This document shows positions 3,884-32,966 of a stretch of DNA of 36,837 nt, piece by piece. The notes under the pieces were generated by a model. That model ran no database searches and was not told where the DNA came from. It was given only the letters and a program-made list of their open reading frames with translations. The stretch lies in the IMG/VR virus record IMGVR_UViG_2541047941_000005. One strand, 5' to 3'. A program made the position numbers and the translations under genes. Source of the DNA: a virus. Its lineage: Duplodnaviria > Heunggongvirae > Uroviricota > Caudoviricetes. Position 1 is the first letter of the stretch, and each line of letters starts with the position of its first letter.

Positions 3884-6843
3884 TATGCAAGCCTCACAAT
3901 ATAGTTAAATGCGATGTTTTTGACGGTGTTTTCCGCGTTACCAGCAGCGTTAACGGTGATGGTGTGTCCATGTGAACCAATCGCAACGGAGTGCGTATGA
4001 GCACCAATACCGACAGTATGCGCGTGTGCACCTGCAGATGCTGCTGTGCCGGACAGTGAATGGCTATGATTACCATCTGTACTGGTATTCGCTAACCACC
4101 CCGTAGACATACCTACTGAGCCTTGTACACCCCAGGTATTTTGACCTGAGCTTGTATAACCATATTGATAAGTATCTTTAAAAACACTGGGGTTAAATCG
4201 ACGGCCATCTCTATGGCTGTGATTACCAGCTGCATTCGTGCTGCCACTTAAACTATGGGTATGCGCACCAGTGTTATTCGTGGATTTAGTGCCGTAATCA
4301 AACGACGATGTGGTTTTCGTCCCCAAATCCGTACTGGATGCGCTGGCGCTGTGGGTATGCGATTTAATGCCGTCCTGTTCCTGAGACAATACGGCCCGAC
4401 CACTGGCAGGTTTGCCCTTAATCGTCCAGCCACGCATATCAGGGATCACGCCTGACGGATAAGCGGCTGCAAGTTTCGGGTATGCAGATTTGTCAAAAGT
4501 CTGCCCCTGCATCAGGGCATAGCCAGACGGAACGGTATCTGATGGCCACGGGATTGGTGCGCCAGGCGGATAAAACTGCTCTGATGGCGTATAGAGTGAA
4601 TAAACTGTACCGTCCGTTAACCCTTCCGGCTTATTAGCAGAATATGCTGGTGACGTATGAATCGTCACGCTGGCATTACTGGTATAATCCCATTGAATAT
4701 TTACACCAGTCGCATAATTTCCGATTGCAACGTAAATATCGTAAGTATCACCAGATGTATTGACCCAGGCAAAATTTGTAAACCCTGTCGATGTGCGCTG
4801 CCATAAAGCACCAGTAATCCCCTTCGGATTACCATTACCTGCACGTAAAACAAGTTCAGATATACCTGCCTGTTGAGGTGACCCCACGTTAAATCCAGCG
4901 CCACCAATCAACGTAATTGAAACAACAGAACTCGCCTGTGGCATGGTTACCGTTGCTAATTTGAACCAACCAGCACCACCGCTGAATGACATTGTTGTTG
5001 AGTTAAGCGTACCAATATCTTTCGGCGTCAGTGTTATATCCGCTGAAAGCGCCTTACCATTCACCTTACGGGCAGAAGGTACCCGACCATTCGCATTGTC
5101 ATTAGCTGCTTTCACTGCTTTCGGTGTCGCAGCAAGCGTTTCAGATGTGCTGTTGGTTGCACTACTGAGCTGGACAATTCCTTTTTGTGCTGTCGTAGCG
5201 TCCTGTGCGGTGTATTTCCCGTTAGCCAGGTCATACGCGGCCTTAACGGCTTTTGGCGTTGCCGCCTGTGACTCGGAAGTGCTGTTAGTCGCACTGCTGA
5301 GCTGAACTATCCCTTTCTGTGCTGTCGTTGCATCCTGTGCGGTGTATTTCCCGTTAGCCAGGTCATACGCGGCCTTAACGGCTTTTGGCGTTGCCGCCTG
5401 TGACTCGGAAGTGCTGTTGGTCGCACTGCTGAGCTGTACTATCCCCTTTTTCGTCGTGCTCGCATCCTCAAGCGCCACGGCGGATGCAATATCCTCTGCC
5501 CGTTTTGCTGCTGTCTCGGCGCGCGTTGCCGCGGATTCCGCCGTACTTTTGCTCTGTGCTGCCGCTGCCGCACTGCCAGCAGCCTCTGTCGCCTTCGTGG
5601 ATGCCGTCGTGGCGCTGCCCCTCGCTGCTGACGCCTGTCTGGTCGCCTCATCTTTTGAAGCAGACGCAGATGATGCCGATGACGCCGCCGAACTGGCGGA
5701 CGATGCGGCAGCCGTTTTTGAGGATTCTGCGCTGGTTTCCGACGCTTTCGCGTTCGTTTCGGATGTCTTCGCTGCGGAAGCAGACCTCGCTGCTGCGCTG
5801 GCCTGTTCAGTGGCTTCGCCAGCCTTCGTTGTGGCTGTTGAAGCGGATGATGCGGCGCTTTCTGCCGATTTTCCGGCGGCGGTGGCACTGACTGCTGCCT
5901 CCTCTGCCTTAATGGACGCCTCACGGGCCGATGATGCAGCTGCTGTCTCAGAGTCTGCCGCAGCTGAGGCGCTCTGTTCCGCTGCCGTTTCAGAAGACCT
6001 GGCATTCGTCTCGGACGTTTTTGCCGCCTTCACGGAATTTCCTGCCGCCGTTGCCGAGGAGGCTGCACTGCTGGCGCTTGTGGAGGCGTTCGTTTCTGAT
6101 GATTTTGCCGCCTCTTTGGAGGCCGCCGCATCTCTGGCTGAAGTGGCGGCTTCTGACGCTTTCGTCGTCGCAGTGGATGCAGAAGTGGCTGCTGATTTTT
6201 GTGACGCTGCAGCATTCGTTTCTGACGTTTTCGCCGCACCGGCACTGGTGGCCGCCGCGCTTTTTGAGGACTCTGCAGCGGCAGCACTTTTTGATGCTTC
6301 AGTGGCCTTTGTTGATGCCGTTCCTGCGCTGGAAGACGCCTCCTGAGCCGAAGTCGCGGCCTGTCCGGCTGACGTGCTGGCTGCACGCGCTGAGCCTGCA
6401 GCATCAGTCGCATGGGTTGCCGCCTCACGGGCAGATGTGCCGGCATCACTGGCTGACTTCTTCGCGGCTGCCGTGTTCTGTGCCACCGCGGACGCGTTAC
6501 GCGCCACCTCTTCCACCATCAGTTCAAAACGGCGCAGAGCCTCCGGACGGGCATCATCCTCCGTCATGGCACCGAGAAAATCATTCAGCGTACCGGGTCG
6601 GGAATCTTCATACACGGTGATGGTCCCGGCATGTGACGGCGGGAATCCTTCCACCAACAGAATAACGCTGTACTGACCGTACTCAACGTCCATGCTGTAA
6701 CGCCCGGCTTCATCCGGATTTTCAGATGCCACCGTGTTCACCACCACCGTGGTGCTGTTACGTTTTGCTTTCAGCTGGATTGTGCAGTTCTGTACCGGTT
6801 TACCTGCACCGTCTTTCAGTACACCTGAAATCTTTACTGCCAT
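3883..6843 (-). CDS. stf: Side tail fibre protein Stf (about 986 aa)
   Basis: N-terminus [26 protein letters not shown]... as in lambda Stf; long Ala/Ser/Thr-rich region; 3 tandem 44-aa repeats; C-terminal HxH-rich tip domain ending [14 protein letters not shown] at 6843 (the tracker start at 6849 is GTG). Confidence 0.9.
5095..5448. repeat. Tandem 132-bp repeats (2 full copies + 1 diverged partial) inside stf, encoding [44 protein letters not shown]
   Basis: Same 21-mer gtgtatttcccgttagccagg at 5210 and 5342 (period 132); protein repeat seen three times. Confidence 0.85.
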
Positions 6844-23105: not shown

Positions 23106-23317
23106 CAGAACCTCGCCAGCCGGTACCCGGGATGCCCCCGTCGTCGTGTAATCAGAGCCGCAAGGCGGCGCTCCCACTCCTGCCGTCCCTGCCGGATCTC
23201 AGATAAGTTTTCCATGGTCATCTGCTGACCATTAAAGGTGACGGATTTTCCGTCCAGCACCGCCATTTCAGCTTCCGTATAACGCTGAATCATGGCTTCG
23301 ATATCATTCTGGTTCAT
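23105..23317 (-). CDS. W: Head-tail joining protein W (70 aa)
   Basis: C-terminus ...ITRRRGHPGYRLARF resembles lambda W ...RRRGPAGFYV; GGAGG Shine-Dalgarno; ATG overlaps terminase stop (ATGA). Confidence 0.8.
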   Translation of the reverse strand: MNQNDIEAMIQRYTEAEMAVLDGKSVTFNGQQMTMENLSEIRQGRQEWERRLAALITRRRGHPGYRLARF

Positions 23318-25413
23318 AACCATCCTCCGGAAGTCAGCCAGGGGTTAACATCGTCAGTTACTGTTTTCTTCCGTTTTTGTTTTTTAACAGGCGTGGATAC
23401 CGGTTCCGGTGAGGATGACGGTTCGGTACTGTCCTGGACACACTCCAGCCAGGTCTCCCGGCTCGCCCACTCCGGTGCATCCGGCCAGCGGATCTTTTCG
23501 TATCCATGCAGAATGACCAGAGCCTCGGCATACACCATCAGGTCAAAAGCTTCGTTGGCACCGCGACCCGGCTTACTCCATTTCCCGTCACTGCTCCGCT
23601 CTTCATACATCAGTTCGTCGTAAAACCAGCTCCCCAGCCAGTCAGGGAAATGCACATAGCCTGGACCTGGCGAGTCACGCCATAACGCGTTATTCACCCG
23701 GTCTTTCAGGGCATCCGTCTGAAGAAGCCAGAGCGGCACATCACCTGCGGCCTGCGCCCGGCGGCCCGTTCGTCCGGTGTTATCAGGGAATGTACGGCTG
23801 ATCAGTTTTGCGCGCCGGATGCTGTCACCCTTAAACAGGTAAATACGTTTACCAAGGCCATCACGACGGCAACGACGCCAGAATTTATAGGCATTATCAG
23901 TGACCCCGTCTTCACCGCCGGAGTCCACCGCCATTGCCATCAGTCGCATTTGTTGAGAAGGATCGGAGGCCAGCGGCCAGCTTTTATGAAAAACATCCGT
24001 CAGCAGGACATCCCAGTCTTCCGGATAGCTGGCCGGATCAATTCGCTGGCTCTCCCCGTCGCAGTCACTGCGCAATGACTGCGTGATGTTGTAACGATCA
24101 ATAATCCAGCGTTCGCCACGACTGCCATAGCCCGTTACCTGAACCACAAAACGGCGATGACGTCCCGCCTGCACATCCACTGTCGCCACAAGGAAATTAA
24201 CGCCATCCGGCACACTGCGGGAAGGAACTGGCTCTGCCCGCTGCTCAAGCAGTTCACTTTTTCGTTGCTCCATGCTGGCACGAGGAAGATAAGGCAATCC
24301 CCAGTCGGTGTTGATAACCGCCCTGAGTGTTTCTTCGCTTCCTGTCGCTTCATACTCCTGTTCTGCAGTCAGTAATTTGTAAACCAGTTGCGCCCAGGTC
24401 TGATACGCAGCAGCTGGCCCTTCCATCCAGAAACTGGCGATACGGGAGCGGCGCGGTTCACCGGAAACGTTGCCGTTACGATCAATGACCTGACCTTCAC
24501 GCAACCAGACTCCTGCACTATTGAGCTCACGCTTTTTCTCCGCAGTGATAATGCCGCTGCAGTGCGGGCAAAGTAGATACGCCGCCTCACTGGCTTTAAA
24601 GGGATCCGGTTCATTACGGTAGCCGGTCATGGCATCCATGGCTGGCTGAAAATATTCACCGCAGTGCGGACATGACCAGTACCAGCGGCGGCGGTCACCA
24701 CGATTGTAAAGGGAAAGAATACCAGTCGTCGGTGGCGCTTCATGAGGCGACTTACGTCGCCATTTGCTGTCGCAGATGTCACGTCCCGGCGAGCTCTCCA
24801 CCAGAGTCATCCCGGCGGACATAAATGTGGTGGTACGTTTTGAGGCCAGGGAGAAACCATCACCCTCGCTGTCGATATTCTCCGGAAAACGGTCGTAATC
24901 GGTTAAGGCGACAAACCGGTAATCCGACGACGACATAATGTTGACCGAGGGCCAACCAATTTTAAGGAACGAGCCATCCCTGAACGTCTTATCATGGACA
25001 TTATTGTCGTTACGACGTGGACTCATTCTTTTCTTTACCGCCGCACTGCTTCTGAACGTTCTGTCGAGGCGCTTTTTAGAATGCTCGCGGGCCTTATCTT
25101 CGGTCATCTGCACAACGAGCATGTCCGAAGGATCGCAAACGATGGTATAGACAATCCATCCATCGATCAGACCAATGGTCTTCCCTGTTCGCGCAGGACC
25201 AACAAAAATCACCGCATCGTATTCACGCGATGCCAGGCAGTTCATGGGCTCAATGATGTAGGGTGTCAGTTCAGGATCCCATGGCACCGAGTTACCAGCC
25301 CCCTTGGGAACACGCATGAATTTTTTAACAGCCTCCGAAATCGGCATGCGACGTGGTGGGGAAAATCCTGCCGATATGTCCCTTCCCAAATTTCGGGCTG
25401 ATGAAAAACCCAT
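23314..25413 (-). CDS. A: Terminase large subunit (lambda A-like), 699 aa
   Basis: AGGAGG Shine-Dalgarno 4 nt upstream of ATG at 25413; Walker A-like VGPARTGKT; lambda gpA-like Cys cluster (CPHCGEYF...CPHC). Confidence 0.95.
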   Translation of the reverse strand: MGFSSARNLGRDISAGFSPPRRMPISEAVKKFMRVPKGAGNSVPWDPELTPYIIEPMNCLASREYDAVIFVGPARTGKTIGLIDGWIVYTIVCDPSDMLVVQMTEDKAREHSKKRLDRTFRSSAAVKKRMSPRRNDNNVHDKTFRDGSFLKIGWPSVNIMSSSDYRFVALTDYDRFPENIDSEGDGFSLASKRTTTFMSAGMTLVESSPGRDICDSKWRRKSPHEAPPTTGILSLYNRGDRRRWYWSCPHCGEYFQPAMDAMTGYRNEPDPFKASEAAYLLCPHCSGIITAEKKRELNSAGVWLREGQVIDRNGNVSGEPRRSRIASFWMEGPAAAYQTWAQLVYKLLTAEQEYEATGSEETLRAVINTDWGLPYLPRASMEQRKSELLEQRAEPVPSRSVPDGVNFLVATVDVQAGRHRRFVVQVTGYGSRGERWIIDRYNITQSLRSDCDGESQRIDPASYPEDWDVLLTDVFHKSWPLASDPSQQMRLMAMAVDSGGEDGVTDNAYKFWRRCRRDGLGKRIYLFKGDSIRRAKLISRTFPDNTGRTGRRAQAAGDVPLWLLQTDALKDRVNNALWRDSPGPGYVHFPDWLGSWFYDELMYEERSSDGKWSKPGRGANEAFDLMVYAEALVILHGYEKIRWPDAPEWASRETWLECVQDSTEPSSSPEPVSTPVKKQKRKKTVTDDVNPWLTSGGWL

Positions 25414-25421
25414 TATTCCTC

Positions 25422-25949
25422 CTAGAGACTCTCTCCTTCCTCATCAGGAATTAATTCAGCAGCACAAGCCTCGTAGGATTTTTCCTGAAGAGTGTATCGC
25501 AGGTCATCAATGGCCTGCTGTACAACGCCGACGGCCTGAGGAGTCAGGGCGCAATCGCGTTCAAGAACATCCGGAATTGTCTCCAGAACCTGGACGACAG
25601 CCTTTCTCATGGACGAATAGACGATGACTACTTCATCAACGGGGATGAGTTTTCGCTGCTCCTTTTCCAGCTTGATCCTTTCATTTTCAGATTGGTACCA
25701 GTCCTTTCTCTCTTTCGGCTCCATACGGGATGGATCATGAACAGAGTCTGCTGCCTCATGCTTCACACTAAACAGGGCTGGCCCGACATGCTGCAGGGCG
25801 TAAACGGGGTTCCCCCTGATAGTCGCAGCCACAGGAGTGTTGGCCGCGAGGAGCCGTTTTTTTACTGTGTCCCGGTGAAGCCCAAAGGCCTCAGCGATTT
25901 TAAAAACACTCCAGTAATAAGCATCACCGATCCCGCTCACATTTGACAT
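25422..25949 (-). CDS. Terminase small subunit (Nu1-like), about 175 aa
   Basis: Position directly upstream of terminase large subunit; N-terminal HTH-like segment; GGAG Shine-Dalgarno before ATG at 25949 (longer ORF to 25979 also possible). Confidence 0.75.
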   Translation of the reverse strand: MSNVSGIGDAYYWSVFKIAEAFGLHRDTVKKRLLAANTPVAATIRGNPVYALQHVGPALFSVKHEAADSVHDPSRMEPKERKDWYQSENERIKLEKEQRKLIPVDEVVIVYSSMRKAVVQVLETIPDVLERDCALTPQAVGVVQQAIDDLRYTLQEKSYEACAAELIPDEEGESL

Positions 25950-26133
25950 AAGCAACTCCATCTGGCAGGTGAAAATCATGTTTATTTATATATTTCAATT
26001 AATTGCAAACTGGTCTAATGACAGGGAGAAAAAAATATTGTACAGGTGAAAAGAGAAATAACTTTTAATTATCAATAAATTACCAAACATGCTGCCGCCG
26101 CCATGGAAATGCAAAAACTAGCCTTTTTCCGCG

Positions 26134-26145
26134 ACGCTCCCGCCC
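26134..26145 (-). other. Candidate cosN cohesive-end site
   Basis: Minus strand reads GGGCGGGAGCGTCGCGG, resembling lambda left end GGGCGGCGACCTCGCGG; lies ~190 bp upstream of the Nu1 start, as in lambda. Confidence 0.4.
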
Positions 26146-26174
26146 CGTGGCAGGGGCCCCCACCGGGAGGACCC

Positions 26175-26198
26175 GACAGCCTGACAGCCTGACAGCCG
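26175..26198. repeat. Three tandem copies of GACAGCCT adjacent to cos candidate
   Basis: gacagcctgacagcctgacagcc read directly. Confidence 0.6.
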
Positions 26199-26333
26199 TG
26201 ATGAGCATCTGATACAGCGCTTTACATAATGGCATAGGAATAATTCAGAAGGACATCACAGCATGCCCACACAAATTAGTGTGAGTGTCCTGTTTCTTCC
26301 TACGCACAGGACTGACGAGCATGAGGGGAAAAT

Positions 26334-26501
26334 ATGCGAACCATAAATGCCTCATCTTCAGCAATGCAACCGGCATCCGAACAGGACGATATTGTAAATT
26401 CACCTAATTACGAGGACATTGCAGTAGTTGAATTGCAGCTCTGTATTAGCCTGACAGTGACAGAATGCGATATTGACTCTGTCACAGGTGAAATAGTTTG
26501 A
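26334..26501 (+). CDS. Hypothetical small acidic protein (55 aa)
   Basis: ATG preceded by GAGGGG at 5-nt spacing; convergent with the next ORF. Confidence 0.3.
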   Translation: MRTINASSSAMQPASEQDDIVNSPNYEDIAVVELQLCISLTVTECDIDSVTGEIV

Positions 26502-26521
26502 ATGATTAGCAGTTATGGTGC

Positions 26522-26728
26522 TCAGTCAACCACCAGGGAATAATCCTTCGAATTCTTATCGTGCTTCACCAACGCTGCCTCAATTGCCCTGAATGCTTCC
26601 AGAGACACCTGATGTTCTATACATGCAATTACAACATCCGGGTAACTCATAGAAATGGTGCTATTAAGCATATTTTTTACACGAATCAGATCCAACGAGA
26701 GTTCATCAGCAGATTGTTCTTTATTCAT
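26522..26728 (-). CDS. Hypothetical protein (68 aa)
   Basis: ATG with GGAG Shine-Dalgarno at 7-nt spacing; no homolog recognised (could correspond to Qin ynfO). Confidence 0.45.
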
Positions 26729-27028
26729 TTTGTCGCTCCATGCGTTTGCTCGTCATCTAGCGGTTAAAATATTACTTCAAATCTTACTGCATAAAAGAGG
26801 AAAAGTATGAAAGTTTGAGTACATCGACCTTACATACATCTGTCGGTTGCATATCCCTCCTGGATGCCAGCAAGGCTCAATTTTGTTACGCAATCAACAC
26901 TATTCATCAAAAACAGGCTTAATATTTGACATAAATCATCAACAAAACACAAAGAGGTCAGACCAGATTGAAACAATAAACACGATAATGCTAACTACGC
27001 GCCATCGTATCACATGGAAGGTTTACCA

Positions 27029-27439
27029 ATGGCTCAGGCTGCCATTTTTAAAGAAATATTCGATCAAGTGCGTAAAGATTTAAACTGTGAATTATTTTAT
27101 TCTGAGCTAAAACGTCACAATGTCTCACTTTATATTTACTATTTAGCCACAGATAATATTCACATTGTGTTAGAAAACGACAACATAGTGTTAGTAAAAG
27201 GACTCAAAAAGGTTGTAAATGTTAAATTCTCCAGAAACAAACATCTTATAGAGACCTCCTATAATAAGTTGAAATCAAAAGAAATCACATTTCAACAATA
27301 CAGGGAAAATCTTGCTAAAGCAGGAGTTTTCCGATGGGTTACAAATATCCAGGAACACCAAAGATATTACTATGCCTTTGATAACTCATTACTATTTACT
27401 GAAAGCATCCAGAAAACTACACAGATCTTACCACGCTAA
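27029..27439 (+). CDS. ydfO: DUF1398-family prophage protein YdfO (136 aa)
   Basis: Length and position between packaging and lysis modules as in Qin; GGAAGG Shine-Dalgarno. Confidence 0.7.
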
Positions 27440-27447
27440 ACCATAAC

Positions 27448-27476
27448 GTCCGGCTTCTCTCACTCCTGAGCCGGAC
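27448..27476 (+). terminator. Hairpin downstream of ydfO (weak terminator)
   Basis: gtccggct - 13-nt loop - agccggac; poor T-tract. Confidence 0.3.
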
Positions 27477-27590
27477 TGCATTGGTTTAATAAAAACCATC
27501 AACAATTGTGATTTAGATATTCGGAACCATTCAAATATAACAAAACCCCGTAAAAACGAGGTTTATGGATAAATTTTATTATTGAATACA

Positions 27591-27764
27591 TCAGATTAAA
27601 TTAATCTTGACATCATAGCTTTCAAGACCCGTCATTTTTTCCCGTGCGGTAAACTGAATACTGGTAACTTCTTTCCCGGTCTTTTTCTTAAGTTCAATAA
27701 TTTTTTTTGTTATATATTCAGAAATATCTGCTTCTGCTTTTGTTTTTAAGTTTTCAATATTCAT
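27591..27764 (-). CDS. gnsB: GnsA/GnsB-family protein (57 aa)
   Basis: Translation MNIENLKTKAEADISEYITKKIIELKKKTGKEVTSIQFTAREKMTGLESYDVKINLI; AAGAGGAA Shine-Dalgarno; below the 60-aa cutoff of the ORF track. Confidence 0.8.
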   Translation of the reverse strand: MNIENLKTKAEADISEYITKKIIELKKKTGKEVTSIQFTAREKMTGLESYDVKINLI

Positions 27765-27935
27765 CATTTCCTCTTTTAGTCTGTTATGACTTTCCAGTTA
27801 CACAGTAAGTCGATTATATGGTGCAAACGTGTAAAAGATAAGATGAAACATCGCAATAATCAACATACGATAGTCTAAATTTTACACAAACAGACAAAGA
27901 GAATTTTCCTGAATTATCAATACAATAGCATCAAA

Positions 27936-28166
27936 TCAACTCAAGAGCCTTATTGCTGCTTCCAGAATTTCTTCTGAAGTAACATGTCGATCCGCGGCTA
28001 CATAAATGACTTTATGATCTCCGGTCAGAGATGGAAACCCTGCGGCCATTACAGTAAGGTGTGTTTTTTCGCCATTTGGATATTCACGCATGATGGTGTT
28101 AACTCCAGTCATCGCTGGCACTACCACTGCTGGTTCAGAGTTAAAAAAAACTATGATTTTTTTCAT
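27936..28166 (-). CDS. Hypothetical protein (76 aa from ATG; tracker TTG start gives 90 aa)
   Basis: Protein-like composition (MKKIIVFFNSEPAVVVPAMTGVNTIMREYPNGEKTHLTVMAAGFPSLTGDHKVIYVAADRHVTSEEILEAAIRLLS); weak Shine-Dalgarno. Confidence 0.45.
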   Translation of the reverse strand: MKKIIVFFNSEPAVVVPAMTGVNTIMREYPNGEKTHLTVMAAGFPSLTGDHKVIYVAADRHVTSEEILEAAIRLLS

Positions 28167-28210
28167 GATGTTACCGTAGTATGTGAGTATCCATCGAATA
28201 GATACCAAGC

Positions 28211-28231
28211 AAAAAAGCTCCCGAAGGAGCC
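28211..28231 (-). terminator. Rho-independent terminator downstream of cspI
   Basis: Minus strand ggctcc-ttcg-ggagc followed by TTTTTT. Confidence 0.55.
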
Positions 28232-28437
28232 TTCATTTTCACTTTTTTAAATCCAACGACAGACGGCTGGCATTTAAGTATTGTGAAATATTATCAAATG
28301 TAATCATCATTGATTTACAAAAGATACATTTTGCCCCGAAAGGATTCATGTCAGAAACATCAAAAGATGATGTTCTATACTGGGAACCATGACAACACGG
28401 GCATCTAAAGTGAATATGGTTTGTAATATTGTCTACC

Positions 28438-28650
28438 TCAAAGCGCCACTACATGAACAGCGGCAGGACCTTTAGGTCCGTTCTCAATACCAAATTCAAC
28501 TTCCTGATTCTCAGTTAATGTTTTGAAATCGTTGCTCTGAATTGCTGAGAAATGGACAAACACATCTTTGCTGCCATCTTTCGGCGTGATGAAACCAAAA
28601 CCTTTTTCAGGGTTAAACCATTTCACTAAACCAGTCATTTTGTTAGACAT
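28438..28650 (-). CDS. cspI: Cold shock protein CspI (70 aa)
   Basis: [38 protein letters not shown]... canonical cold-shock domain with RNP motifs. Confidence 0.9.
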
Positions 28651-29012
28651 AATTATTACCTTTTGAAGAAATTAGCCCTTGGGCAGAATGGTCCGAAAAA
28701 AAATATCAGAGAGAAAAACCAACAAGGAAATCTCAAGAGGTACAAATAATAAAATTATAACAATGACTGCTTCAGATAAATTTGTAACAAACCAGAACAC
28801 CATTAACGCATGATTAACCACCCATAGCAAGGATTACTTTTGTAAAGAAAAACACAGCAATGAAAGAATAGCTTTATTTATTAATAAAACGTGTCATTCT
28901 GATTAAGACCTTTTATCTTACCCTTAAGATTTCAGGAATTTTGGCTCATGGAAGAGTCCTTTTTATTTAAATTTTACATTCCGCGATGTAAATGTTCCGA
29001 TTTAATATTACC

Positions 29013-30036
<1,024 letters not shown>

Positions 30037-30040
<4 letters not shown>

Positions 30041-30348
30041 ATATATTTATGATGAGGACGCTCGTGCTTATTGGCAGGATTTTCAATCTTAAAGGAGTAC
30101 TGATGCTGCAGATAAGACTCAACTTTTTCTGACAATTTTTCTGCTACTTCCAGGAAGACTTGCCGGACGCTCCTTCTGGCTGCTGCCTCATAAAACTCCA
30201 GCGCAGCTCCTTCAACACGGTCCATGGCGACATCCAGGTCAAAAATTTCACCGTCAAAGCGTTCCTTGTCCTGTAAGGCTACAGTTACCGTAACTTTATT
30301 CTCAAAATTACGGACTCCTTTCACAACCAGTTCATAGTCTTGAGTCAT
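30037..30348 (-). CDS. ydfR: DUF1327-family protein YdfR (103 aa)
   Basis: Length and position between holin and endolysin as in Qin. Confidence 0.65.
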
Positions 30349-30352
30349 TGGA

Positions 30353-30568
30353 TTACTCTCCTCTCGCAGCCTTACGCCTGTCTTCTTTAATCTTGAAATA
30401 AAGATTTGTCAGATACGTCAGCAGGCCAAAAACCAGGCTACCCAGCACACCGATTGCAGCCCACTGTGACGGAGTTACTTTATCGAGTAACTGTAATGCC
30501 CAGAAACCAGCATTACCCGCCGATGTGCCATAGGCAACACCTGTTGTTAACTTATCCATTGATTTCAT
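30353..30568 (-). CDS. Pinholin (phage 21 S-type holin/antiholin, 71 aa, dual start MKSM)
   Basis: [71 protein letters not shown] closely resembles S21. Confidence 0.9.
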
Positions 30569-31322: not shown

Positions 31323-31538
31323 TTAATCAGTAATGATGACATTTGCTGCTGCAGGACCTTTAGCACCACTCTCTATAGAGAAGGTAACCTTTTGACCTTC
31401 AAATAAGGTTCGATAATTATCATTCTGAATCGCAGAAAAATGCACAAACACATCTTTACTACCATCAACAGGAGAAATAAAGCCGAAACCTTTATCAGCG
31501 TTAAACCATTTTACTAAACCAGTCATTTTATTTGACAT
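31323..31538 (-). CDS. cspB: Cold shock protein CspB (71 aa)
   Basis: [38 protein letters not shown]... canonical cold-shock domain. Confidence 0.9.
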
Positions 31539-31848
31539 TCTACATTCCTTAACTTGAGCCTTTCGGCATAAATGGTTTGCATAACAGAAACGACTTCGTA
31601 CTTAATTGGAGAGACTCAAAGAAGGAATAAGTGAATAACACCTGAAATGAGAACTGCTTTAGTAAACTACTTCGTATATCGTCTGTTCTTCAAACCGACG
31701 CAGTCATTAACTCATAGTTGAACATATGAAGCAATGTTTATTTTAGACATCCAGCCACCTTCAATCCTATCAAAAAAGTAGTTTTCTCCAGGAACGTGTG
31801 TATGGTGCACCAGGTTATCAGTATTAAGGAGTTTTTCTGTCCCCTAAA

Positions 31849-32045
31849 ATGACAGGAATTGTCAAAAACTTTGACTACAAAAGCAGCAAAGGTCTTATAT
31901 TCCCATCCGATGGCGTATCGATGCCCAGCTTCACGTTTCAGCTCTCAATCTTCGAGATGCAGAAGAAATTACCACAGGATTACGCGTGGAATTTTGCTGG
32001 ATAAATGGTTCGCGTGGACCTTCAACTGCCAATGTTTATCCCGGG
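31849..32045 (+). pseudogene. cspF: cspF-like cold shock gene with internal frameshift
   Basis: Cold-shock domain N-terminus ([22 protein letters not shown]) in one frame and its continuation ([42 protein letters not shown]) in another; a 1-nt indel near 31913-31917 and loss of the expected stop. Confidence 0.6.
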
Positions 32046-32213: not shown

Positions 32214-32966
32214 TTATCTCGTCACCTTCCTCAATTGCGCTTCCGCGTATGCTTCTTCCTGCCAGCACTTTGTTACCAGTTTACCAATGACGTCCGCATA
32301 CCCCTTATACCACTGATAATCGGTCAGGTCTGGTACCAGCTTCTGGACATGACGTCGTGCCAGCGTGGTCGGTAAACGACTAAACCGGTTTCCATTACAA
32401 CGCCCACAAATCTTATATACCGGTACGCCATGAAACCGGGTTCTTTTTTCATCCAGAACAATCCCTTTACCCTTACACCCTCTGCACGCTGTGCTGACTT
32501 CGCCCTTACCATGGCAATGCTGACATAGTTCCTTCACCCATTCTTCCTTGATTACAGATTCCCCGCGTCTGTAGTGTTTCACCACTTCGCGCAATACATT
32601 ATAAAATCCCGTACCTGAACAATGCTCACAGCGAGCCTTACTTGCCGCAGACCTGGAGTAATCAGCAAAGGCAAAATTCACGAGGTAAGGAATAATCTGT
32701 AACCGGATTTCTTCACTCAATTTGTTCAATGTCGGGTTATCCAGTGCCATCGCGTAATTTAGCAGGCCTTCAATCGCAAACTGAGCGTCCTGAACACCAA
32801 CTTTTGCCAGAAATAAGGCCAACCCAAGTGGTGCTTTCGACTGCACCATCCCCTGCGCTGCCATTACATCCGTAATTGTTAAACAACCGGTGCCTGTCGC
32901 TGGAGCGTCATCGCTCAATTTTGGAGATTTTGGGGAGTAATATTTTGGTAAGGCTTCAAGGTTCAT
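32214..32966 (-). CDS. quuQ: Late antiterminator Q (250 aa)
   Basis: Zn-binding Cys clusters ([32 protein letters not shown]); GGAG Shine-Dalgarno; position upstream of the lysis genes; length equals K-12 QuuQ. Confidence 0.85.

Follow-up and report, generated by a model that had tools for sequence, protein, structure and literature searches.

Two uncharacterised small genes in a low-GC accessory segment of a Qin/Tritos-type Escherichia coli prophage

Which of the small open reading frames (ORFs) between the packaging end and the lysis cassette of a lambdoid prophage are genes, and what kind of cargo do they represent? The question arises for a 36,837-nucleotide stretch of Caudoviricetes DNA (IMG/VR record IMGVR_UViG_2541047941_000005; hereafter the window), in which a first-pass annotation of positions 26200–28437 recognised a DUF1398 (ydfO-like) gene (27029–27439, plus strand), gnsB (27591–27764, minus strand) and the adjoining cspI (28438–28650, minus strand), along with three small ORFs of 55 aa (26334–26501, plus strand), 68 aa (26522–26728, minus strand) and 76 aa (27936–28166, minus strand), to which no function was assigned. 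These were interpreted as an accessory cluster in mixed orientations, independently expressed and typical of lysogenic-conversion or defence cargo. The named neighbours are right and all three ORFs lie exactly at these positions; two of them, encoding YbcW and YnfN, are real, uncharacterised genes, and the 55-aa ORF is no gene.

The region is a low-GC accessory stretch of a Qin/Tritos-type E. coli prophage, and it is already annotated. Positions 26000–28700 match many E. coli chromosomes at 100% identity and, over 95% of this 2.7-kb query, phage Tritos of strain LF82 at 99.8%, Tritos being an intact relative of the K-12 Qin prophage. The linear Tritos genome as deposited ends at window position 26146; the position of cos in the window is one that we only infer. 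RefSeq features at these coordinates cover every gene in the region, leaving out only the 55-aa ORF, and include two that the first-pass inventory had missed, ynfQ (28239–28427) and ynfR (28171–28236). GC content is 0.32–0.39 across 26500–29000, 0.50–0.56 in the terminase genes and 0.45–0.50 in the lysis genes. The block from cspI to ynfN was found in 2147 of 5426 complete E. coli genomes (at least 80% of the block in 2114), and comparisons among related phages show accessory modules that are present or absent in a modular fashion and swapped between phages as blocks. Low GC content, block exchange, transcription in the Tritos lysogen and PdhR-dependent ybcV/ybcW mRNA (both described below) all agree with the label ‘accessory cluster’, and support the view that the cargo between lysis cassette and packaging end is accessory and non-structural. 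‘Mixed orientations’, however, was an overstatement: cspI, ynfQ, ynfR, ynfN, gnsB and ybcW all lie on the minus strand, in the same direction as the lysis and terminase genes, and once the 55-aa ORF is removed only the DUF1398 gene runs against the late operon.

From position 26951 rightwards the window shares 96% DNA identity with K-12 Qin, as well as its gene order and orientation (ydfO-gnsB-ynfN-ynfR-ynfQ-cspI), although the ynfN allele of the window is intact (76 codons) and that of Qin is frameshifted. To the left of 26951, the window has a ybcW-type gene whereas K-12 Qin has ynfO (DUF3950). A further resemblance is to phage lambda (bor, lambdap78, lambdap79) and the DLP12 prophage (bor-ybcV-ybcW-ylcI), in which the DUF1398/ybcW pair is alike (89.5% DNA identity over 26376–27458) and ybcW likewise lies beside the packaging end, in late-transcript orientation. 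In contrast to the window prophage, lambda and DLP12 carry bor in place of the cspI-to-gnsB unit, and ylcI with a Nu1/NohD-type small terminase gene in place of other DNA with a DUF1441-type one. The chromosomal cspG-ymcF-ymcE-gnsA cluster also resembles the window in its succession of a csp gene, a 10-bp gap, an AUU-start gene for a 62-aa zinc-ribbon protein, a hairpin and a distal gns gene, with 73–74% DNA identity over the csp+ymcF and gns parts; the middle segments are unrelated, consisting of ynfR+ynfN (~508 bp) in the window and ymcE (~227 bp) in the cspG cluster.

The 55-aa ORF is a chance reading frame. ORFs of at least 55 aa are expected in a 2.2-kb region of this kind (mean 2.1; at least one in 90% of first-order Markov simulations), and in the closest alleles (89–92% identical) the ATG is lost or the frame shifted: the 89%-identical alleles of HannyBb and strain 18KM2445 carry an ATG-to-ACG change and two 1-nt deletions, and the CFT073 allele has one 1-nt deletion. 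Homology to lambda and DLP12 starts only at 26376 and carries +1/−1 indels. Protein-level matches are limited to 41 E. coli ORFs that are either nearly identical or frame-shifted, and the RefSeq annotation of the related genomes that we checked never includes this ORF. Its full-length PHROG match stems from gene calling on phage DNA that is nearly identical, and is no sign of conservation. Broken alleles, chance expectation and the absence of conserved homologues thus rule it out as a gene. The 3′ two-thirds of the ORF (26376–26501) is conserved non-coding DNA downstream of ybcW; this segment is common to lambda and DLP12. The first-pass annotation had itself named a lack of purifying selection as grounds for rejecting the small ORFs, and since the 55-aa ORF is non-coding, this applies to it; YbcW and YnfN are both under purifying selection.

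YbcW (26522–26728, minus strand) is a homologue of DLP12 YbcW and of lambda lambdap79, with which it shares 62 of 68 residues (91%), and it matches phrog_657 over its full length (residues 1–68, 5.2e-47). The gene is intact at 68 codons, without indels, in all eight alleles examined. Substitution rates are dN 0.008–0.05 versus dS 0.06–0.28 in residues 16–68, and the first 15 residues are variable (dN/dS ~0.6–1.2, without a clear non-synonymous excess); YbcW as a whole is evidently under purifying selection. An AF2 model depicts a small helical bundle of moderate confidence (pLDDT 70.7), the structure matches of which are generically helical. True homologues are confined to lambdoid phages of Escherichia; what a scan of genome contigs recovered was largely contamination of unrelated assemblies by lambda control DNA, and the scan thus shows only that true homologues stay within this genus. 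The gene is usually divergent from the DUF1398 gene, but as the latter is absent in CFT073 and 18KM2445, this pairing is not obligatory.

The DUF1398 product (YdfO/YbcV family) is matched by Pfam PF07166 (1.7e-43) and by PDB 2HH8 (YdfO, 8e-67). A strong hairpin follows its gene (27448–27476; −21.9 kcal/mol, z = −6.2), and the first pass was right that the region has terminator-like hairpins; downstream of ybcW, the predicted hairpin folds no more stably than shuffled controls do (z = −1.2 and +0.1). Between the two divergent genes lies a control region (26729–27028) containing a PdhR-box-like site (26951–26967), whose core, TGGTCTGACC (26956–26965), is an exact match and the only one in the whole window. 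The K-12 ybcV/ybcW PdhR site, AtcTGGTctgACCtcTT, contains the same core, and in a K-12 pdhR mutant ybcV mRNA falls 10-fold and ybcW mRNA 8.9-fold (PMC7660256). In K-12, where the prophage that carries ybcW is cryptic and lacks a lytic cycle, expression of the gene depends on the host regulators PdhR and Hha. In lambda, lambdap79 is located within the late transcript, and CRISPRi against it is polar on late genes; the gene itself is non-essential, including for plaque formation (PMC10695390). Positions 26522–27439 would then form one module of the region, a divergent ybcW-like/DUF1398 pair common to lambda and DLP12, with a putative PdhR box in the shared control region.

The other module appears to be a cold-shock transcription unit on the minus strand, running from 28796 to ~27543. 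It would start from the cspI promoter and a cspA-type thermosensing 5′ UTR (28651–28796; Rfam RF01766, full match 28411–28796, 112.8 bits against a gathering score of 78, E = 3.9e-29), followed by cspI itself (28438–28650; identical to K-12 CspI; Pfam CSD PF00313, 1.6e-31) and ynfQ (28239–28427). The latter, with an AUU start and 62 codons, encodes a YmcF-like CxxC...CxxC zinc-ribbon protein (Pfam PF23641, 1.3e-11, C-terminal part), and its DNA is 74% identical to cspG-ymcF. Just after ynfQ, an intrinsic-terminator hairpin followed by U6 (28213–28234; −14.9 kcal/mol, z = −2.6) overlaps the RefSeq-annotated ynfR (28171–28236, 21 aa). The hairpin stem (GGCTCC/GGAGC(C)) recurs, with differing loops, in loci of the Citrobacter type and at the chromosomal cspG-ymcF, whereas the ynfR ORF is disrupted in CFT073 and lacks an ATG in L007; the terminator is thus conserved where the ORF is not. 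Beyond ynfN and a 171-bp spacer, gnsB (Pfam PF08178, 3e-35; GnsA crystal structures 4XO1/4XO2), with DNA 73% identical to chromosomal gnsA, precedes a terminator-like hairpin with a 9-bp stem and the U-tract UUUUGUUAUAU (27543–27564, minus strand), at which the unit would end.

We infer the operon structure of this module, and read-through of its internal terminator, from co-regulation in K-12 and one RNA-seq table for LF82. YnfR-SPA is strongly induced by cold shock (PMC6001520); cspI, ynfQ and ynfN are co-induced (6.5-, 5.9- and 5.8-fold) and similarly dependent on SspA (38-, 42- and 51-fold) (PMC11228462). The K-12 source of these co-regulation data carries the frameshifted ynfN. In the Tritos prophage of an uninduced LF82 lysogen, cspI stands 93-fold and ynfN 27-fold above the prophage background, and ybcW, the DUF1398 gene and gnsB are not among the genes listed at least 5-fold above it (PMC9928086), a graded fall from cspI to ynfN to gnsB that fits partial termination. 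A promoter scan of the region yielded 6 sigma-70-like sites versus 11.7 in shuffled sequence, and says nothing for or against separate promoters of ynfN or gnsB; the promoters of the region are implied by literature alone. Wang, Yamanaka and Inouye are said to have shown in 1999 that cspI itself is cold-induced, and antiterminator activity is known for CspA-family proteins. Expression of ynfR, ynfN and perhaps gnsB would depend on read-through of the internal terminator; cold would promote this read-through, possibly via such antiterminator activity, and it would also take place under Q antitermination in lytic growth. With four or five genes in one co-oriented unit, ‘independently expressed’ is not an apt description of this part of the cluster.

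YnfN, the product of the third gene of the csp-ymcF-ynfN trio (27936–28166; RefSeq WP_000720962.1, ‘protein YnfN’), matches phrog_3425 over residues 1–76 (7.2e-54); we define the family by this RefSeq name and by phrog_3425/4911. Low dN/dS (0.08–0.20) and a steady ORF length (73–78 aa across the family) mark it, on comparative grounds, as a real and strongly constrained coding sequence. Residues 26–76 are identical to K-12 YnfN, which, owing to a T8-to-T7 frameshift, is annotated from Met26 (51 aa) and lacks the first 25 residues, and with them roughly two and a half of the five predicted strands; screens in K-12 are accordingly poorly informative about YnfN. The predicted fold of this slightly acidic protein is confident, but matches no solved structure, and neither a Pfam match nor a recognisable motif was found (Pfam scans of 23 family members gave chance hits only), so that any suggested function in RNA or translation is only a guess. 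The family is small (44 cluster representatives among 1.84 billion proteins). The closest YnfN relatives are always preceded by csp and a gene for a YmcF-like zinc-ribbon protein. The order csp–YmcF-like–YnfN is kept at loci, non-prophage sites included, whose YnfN proteins are 76%, 60%, 52% and 43% identical, and other family members adjoin a divergent csp gene, a ydfK/ynaE cold-shock gene or an HSP20 gene. More distant YnfN-like genes (31–47% identity) follow prophage lysis cassettes or lie on a plasmid, with no csp gene nearby, and the cold-shock link may thus be lineage-specific. Within that link, YnfN would act together with Csp and YnfQ in adaptation to cold or temperature stress.

The idea of three unassigned ORFs therefore survives in part: no function can be assigned to YbcW or YnfN, although both belong to long-named families and the third ORF is non-coding. 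Nor did the defence reading gain ground, as profile searches of PADLOC, Pfam and NCBIfam revealed no defence-system signature in, and no match for, any of the three small ORFs (in PADLOC-DB 2.0, none for the 55-aa ORF and YnfN, and one chance-level match, 0.021, for YbcW), and searches of PHROGs matched only families of ‘unknown function’. A related explanation is that YbcW/lambdap79 is a phage protein that triggers or inhibits host immunity, for example the DUF4062/‘NIR’ NADase, rather than a lysogenic-conversion or housekeeping factor. A preprint of September 2026 on NADase immunity of the DUF4062/NIR type names lambdap79 six times, and uses “expression of lambdap79” and “lambdap79 is a...” once each (10.64898/2026.09.04.749371), and a small, non-essential protein of Escherichia lambdoid phages only, with a variable N-terminus on an invariant core, would suit an immune conflict. 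We consider this unlikely, given that PADLOC has no hit, that the substitution rates of the N-terminal 15 residues give no clear non-synonymous excess, and that in a sister preprint it is the phage portal, instead, that activates a DUF4062 system.

About equally improbable is that YbcW and YnfN are mainly late lytic accessory proteins, made by Q-antiterminated read-through rather than expressed as cargo of the lysogen. Both genes point the same way as Q and the lysis and terminase genes, lambdap79 belongs to the lambda late transcript, and distant YnfN-like genes without csp recur right after lysis cassettes and before the terminase in the same orientation; yet without induction the lysogen clearly transcribes ynfN and cspI (PMC9928086), ybcW answers to PdhR and Hha where there is no lytic cycle, YnfN-like genes also occupy non-prophage chromosomal sites, and lambdap79 is dispensable for plaques. 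There is very little, finally, to recommend a YnfN-GnsB toxin-antitoxin pair with YnfN in the antitoxin position, modelled on the reported YmcE-GnsA pair. Pfam and RefSeq do label GnsA/GnsB an addiction-module toxin, ymcE-gnsA is among the listed E. coli type II systems (PMC8484670), and ynfN lies upstream of gnsB where, in the other cluster, ymcE lies upstream of gnsA, each gene encoding 76 aa. However, YnfN and YmcE give no BLASTP alignment at E values up to 100; ynfN and gnsB do not overlap and are separated by the spacer described above; YnfN-like genes often occur without any gns gene, and gnsA without ynfN; ynfN but not gnsB is listed in the lysogen (PMC9928086); and GnsA/GnsB overexpression rescues growth and does not kill (bioRxiv 2024.03.27.586906). 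For want of similarity and of co-occurrence we reject YnfN as a YmcE analogue or antitoxin.

The explanation that we favour, and consider probable, is an intact Qin/Tritos-type lambdoid prophage whose low-GC accessory region is assembled from the two exchangeable modules described above. Morons, in the sense of Juhala and Hendrix, are insertions in late operons that differ in composition from their surroundings and are expressed autonomously. The region is moron-like in its dip to 32–39% GC between flanks of 50–55%, its flanking terminators, its modular presence and absence and, in Tritos, its expression in the lysogen; unlike morons, most of its genes are linked in one unit in late-operon orientation, and are not single promoter-gene-terminator cassettes. 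A bolder proposal, which we put forward tentatively and with some doubt, is that csp-ymcF-ynfN is a conserved temperature-stress operon of three genes, with YnfN gated by a Csp-sensitive internal terminator, and that, independently, YbcW/lambdap79 is possibly a phage protein that a DUF4062/NIR NADase immune system senses or that is used against such a system. The zinc-ribbon protein and YnfN, with a fold unlike any solved structure, would then work with the Csp RNA chaperone, and their function would have been missed because the knockout and overexpression collections derive from K-12, whose ynfN is frameshifted.

The region itself is nothing new: ~40% of complete E. coli genomes contain it, with its genes already named and annotated. 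YbcW, however small, is a gene of phage lambda itself, and one that the 2026 NADase-immunity preprint appears to have examined. For YnfN, the ties of its closest family members to csp and ymcF-like genes offer a concrete hypothesis to test.

Region 26000-28700 of the window matches many E. coli chromosomes at 100% identity and is 99.8% identical to Escherichia phage Tritos (the LF82 prophage), and part of it is contained in 3407 of 5426 complete E. coli genomes; it is ordinary and already annotated. In the identical chromosome of strain D3, RefSeq annotation shows that the Qin locus (ydfJ) is occupied by an intact lambdoid prophage, with late genes on the minus strand throughout: the Q-like antiterminator gene ydfT (32214-32966), the lysis genes (29013-30568), and the genes for the DUF1441-type small terminase (25422-25949) and the large terminase (23314-25413). 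The accessory interval (26200-28437) sits between the lysis genes and the small terminase (the first-pass annotation had placed it between cos and the lysis cassette), and GC content falls to 0.32-0.39 across 26500-29000 vs. 0.50-0.56 in the terminase genes. As deposited, the linear genome of Tritos terminates at 26146, which fits the presumed cos just left of the interval. In the GC-rich segment beside this presumed cos, GACAGCCT is repeated perfectly in tandem (x 2.9; 26175-26197), possibly a terminase-recognition element, with one copy fewer in 89%-identical alleles (HannyBb, 18KM2445). The prophage harbors four cold-shock-type genes (ydfK, 2070-2303; cspI, 28438-28650; cspB, 31323-31538; a frameshifted cspF, 31837-32039), as well as ynfQ and a YnfU zinc-binding gene adjoining cspB; genes resembling YnfU are found beside csp in unrelated loci too (L007 and L056, two of the compared YnfN loci).

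The three small ORFs listed as unassigned in the first-pass annotation are all present, and the DUF1398 gene (27029-27439, plus), gnsB and cspI had been identified correctly. Two of the three ORFs are real, and belong to known families of unknown function; the 55-aa ORF (26334-26501, plus) is spurious, as it is not conserved as coding sequence. Alignment of the window with five other alleles reveals ACG in place of ATG plus two 1-nt deletions in the ∼89%-identical alleles (HannyBb, 18KM2445) and one 1-nt deletion in CFT073, while homology to lambda and DLP12 starts only at 26376, with a +1 and a -1 indel. RefSeq calls this ORF in none of the annotated genomes compared, and its 41 matches among 5.8 billion proteins are exclusively from E. 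coli, either near-identical or partial frame variants. The DNA beneath its 3' two-thirds is a conserved stretch downstream of ybcW, where convergent ybcW and ylcI transcripts overlap in K-12 DLP12 (PMC12288877). ORF length alone is weak evidence here: first-order Markov simulation of the region yields, on average, 2.1 ORFs that begin with ATG and reach 55 aa or more, and of the six actually observed, two (this one, and an 88-aa ORF antisense to ynfN) are not genes. In lambda, an intact 64-aa ORF of the YlcI/YnfO family (DUF3950) lies between lambdap79 and cos (L002, the lambda locus, 200-394, plus; lambda ∼48109-48303, complement), antisense to the late transcript and absent from the NC_001416 annotation.

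By sequence, the 68-aa ORF (26522-26728, minus) is YbcW: it matches phrog_657 across its full length, and shows 91% identity to both lambda lambdap79 and DLP12 YbcW. All eight alleles examined retain 68 codons without indels; the first 15 residues vary, and there is almost no change across residues 16-68 (dN 0.008-0.05 vs. dS 0.06-0.28). When the genomes of 185,579 species were scanned, E. coli and E. ruysiae alone yielded genuine relatives, and the family thus seems restricted to Escherichia lambdoid phages. The remaining matches were rejected as lambda control-DNA contamination: dozens of unrelated assemblies (Pseudomonas, Streptomyces, Flavobacterium, Bacillus relatives, various MAGs; L019-L055) carry the lambda right end on ∼3.5-kb or ∼48-kb contigs, almost certainly leftover sequencing control DNA. 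The AF2 model shows, at moderate confidence, a small bundle of helices and gives generic matches only. Divergently oriented, ybcW and the DUF1398 gene share a 300-bp control region containing TGGTCTGACC (26956-26965), the core of the PdhR site that has been mapped in K-12 in the ybcV-ybcW interval; loss of pdhR in K-12 lowers the mRNAs of both genes ∼10-fold (PMC7660256), and Hha induces ybcW 17-fold (PMC2408971). CFT073 and 18KM2445 have no DUF1398 gene, so the two genes need not occur together. In lambda, lambdap79 is non-essential; a dCas12a roadblock placed there has polar effects on the late genes, which locates lambdap79 within the late transcript (PMC10695390).

The 76-aa ORF (27936-28166, minus) is full-length YnfN, the name also used by RefSeq. 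The 51-aa K-12 protein, annotated from Met26, reflects the loss of one nucleotide from the T8 run spanning codons 6-8 (28141-28148; T7 in MG1655, about position 4660 of the K-12 Qin locus, L005) that frameshifts ynfN; most other genomes have the intact 76 codons. Residues 1-25 (MKK.IVFFN...) are kept in homologs down to 28% identity, synonymous sites are saturated, and dN/dS lies at 0.08-0.20. YnfN belongs to a small family: word-indexed searching returned 60 matches, an exhaustive HMMER profile search found 44 members among 1.84 billion representatives, and no Pfam domain was found in its members.

Rather than scattered independent cassettes, as first proposed, the region comprises a cold-shock unit and the lambda-type ybcW/DUF1398 pair. 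The first-pass annotation had overlooked ynfQ (28239-28427, minus; 62 aa, CxxC...CxxC, AUU start, Pfam YmcF-like) and ynfR (28171-28236, minus; 21 aa), both of which are annotated in the stretch from ynfN to cspI. The order is cspI, a 10-bp gap, ynfQ, a 2-nt gap, ynfR, ynfN, a 171-bp spacer and gnsB, and the cspI leader matches the RF01766 thermosensor of Rfam (112.8 bits). At least 80% of the cspI-to-ynfN block is present in 2114 of the 2147 E. coli genomes possessing any of it, a distribution indicating inheritance as a unit in this species. Chromosomal cspG-ymcF-ymcE-gnsA has a parallel order, with DNA 74% alike over cspI and ynfQ and 73% over gnsB, but an unrelated middle segment. The csp, YmcF-like, YnfN order recurs in several loci: Citrobacter-type prophage loci of Enterobacteriaceae, where YnfN identity is 76%, a pair of non-prophage loci (60% and 52%) and one locus adjoining rplY (43%). 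Other YnfN-family genes neighbor a divergent csp, a ydfK/ynaE-type cold-shock gene, or an HSP20 gene (gns 2.6 kb off); remoter members (31-47% identical) follow prophage lysis cassettes, with no csp beside them, or lie on a plasmid. The family is duplicated around csp genes, as two non-prophage loci bear a second, divergent paralog upstream of the same csp (L012, 3037-3264; L015, 725-952), 35-55% identical to the window's YnfN.

The YmcF-like ORF is often uncalled owing to its AUU start, missed by gene callers in metagenomic loci as well, and was detected by translating intergenic gaps. This start (window 28425-28427; L007 3739; L012 about 3752; L015 about 2518) is kept in orthologs to ∼67% identity, 7-10 nt after a GAGG/AAGG Shine-Dalgarno sequence overlapping the csp stop codon; in the more distant L056 the gene starts with AUG. 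Conservation of a non-canonical start suggests translational control.

Directly 3' of ynfQ lies a hairpin (28213-28234; 9-bp GC-rich stem, then U6; -14.9 kcal/mol, z = -2.6) whose stem is conserved across the window, Citrobacter-type and cspG-ymcF loci despite different loops (TTCG, TTAT and CTCGT, respectively). The ynfR ORF is no more than the reading frame spanning this internal terminator: in CFT073 it stops prematurely, and in L007 it lacks an ATG. The annotated YmcE N-terminus (..IRLPRGAFFIS..) is likewise a translation of the homologous hairpin and T-run (K-12 chromosomal locus L006, 2375-2400, ymcF/ymcE junction), which makes the annotated start of ymcE, or even its existence as a gene, doubtful. 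The terminator, not the peptide, is therefore the conserved feature.

Levels of YnfR-SPA increase strongly upon cold shock (PMC6001520), so transcripts must cross the hairpin in the cold. Under AZT treatment cspI, ynfQ and ynfN respond together (6.5-, 5.9- and 5.8-fold), with similar SspA dependence (PMC11228462). In the LF82 lysogen, Tritos cspI and ynfN stand 93- and 27-fold above prophage background, with gnsB, ybcW and ybcV not among the listed genes at least 5-fold above it (PMC9928086). Such expression in lysogens, together with homologs at non-prophage loci, contradicts a purely lytic role for the YnfN/YbcW region. A toxin-antitoxin pairing of YnfN with GnsB is unlikely, as no similarity was detected between YnfN and YmcE, which occupies the antitoxin slot. 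PADLOC gives no support to defence cargo, suggested in the first-pass annotation; one possible lead is a preprint of September 2026 about NADase immunity of the DUF4062/NIR type, which names lambdap79 six times, including "expression of lambdap79".

A single cold-inducible transcript would start at the cspI promoter, part of it stopping after ynfQ and part reading through to ynfR-ynfN, and perhaps gnsB. CspA-family proteins reportedly have antiterminator activity (work attributed to Bae and colleagues in 2000), which could plausibly aid this read-through. In the lytic cycle, the late transcript modified by Q would likewise pass the terminator, running in the same direction through cspI, ynfQ, ynfN, gnsB and ybcW to the terminase genes. 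Gene identities, conservation, the thermosensor match, the conserved terminator and synteny form the observed basis of this structural and transcriptional picture, which we consider probable; that YnfN truly works in partnership with Csp and YnfQ is possible, though less likely than not. Overexpression of GnsA or GnsB increases the content of unsaturated fatty acids and rescues defects in growth at low temperature (bioRxiv 2024.03.27.586906, citing Sugai 2001), so that the cold-shock unit makes functional sense as a whole in adaptation to cold. Within it, YnfN may act in adaptation to temperature stress.
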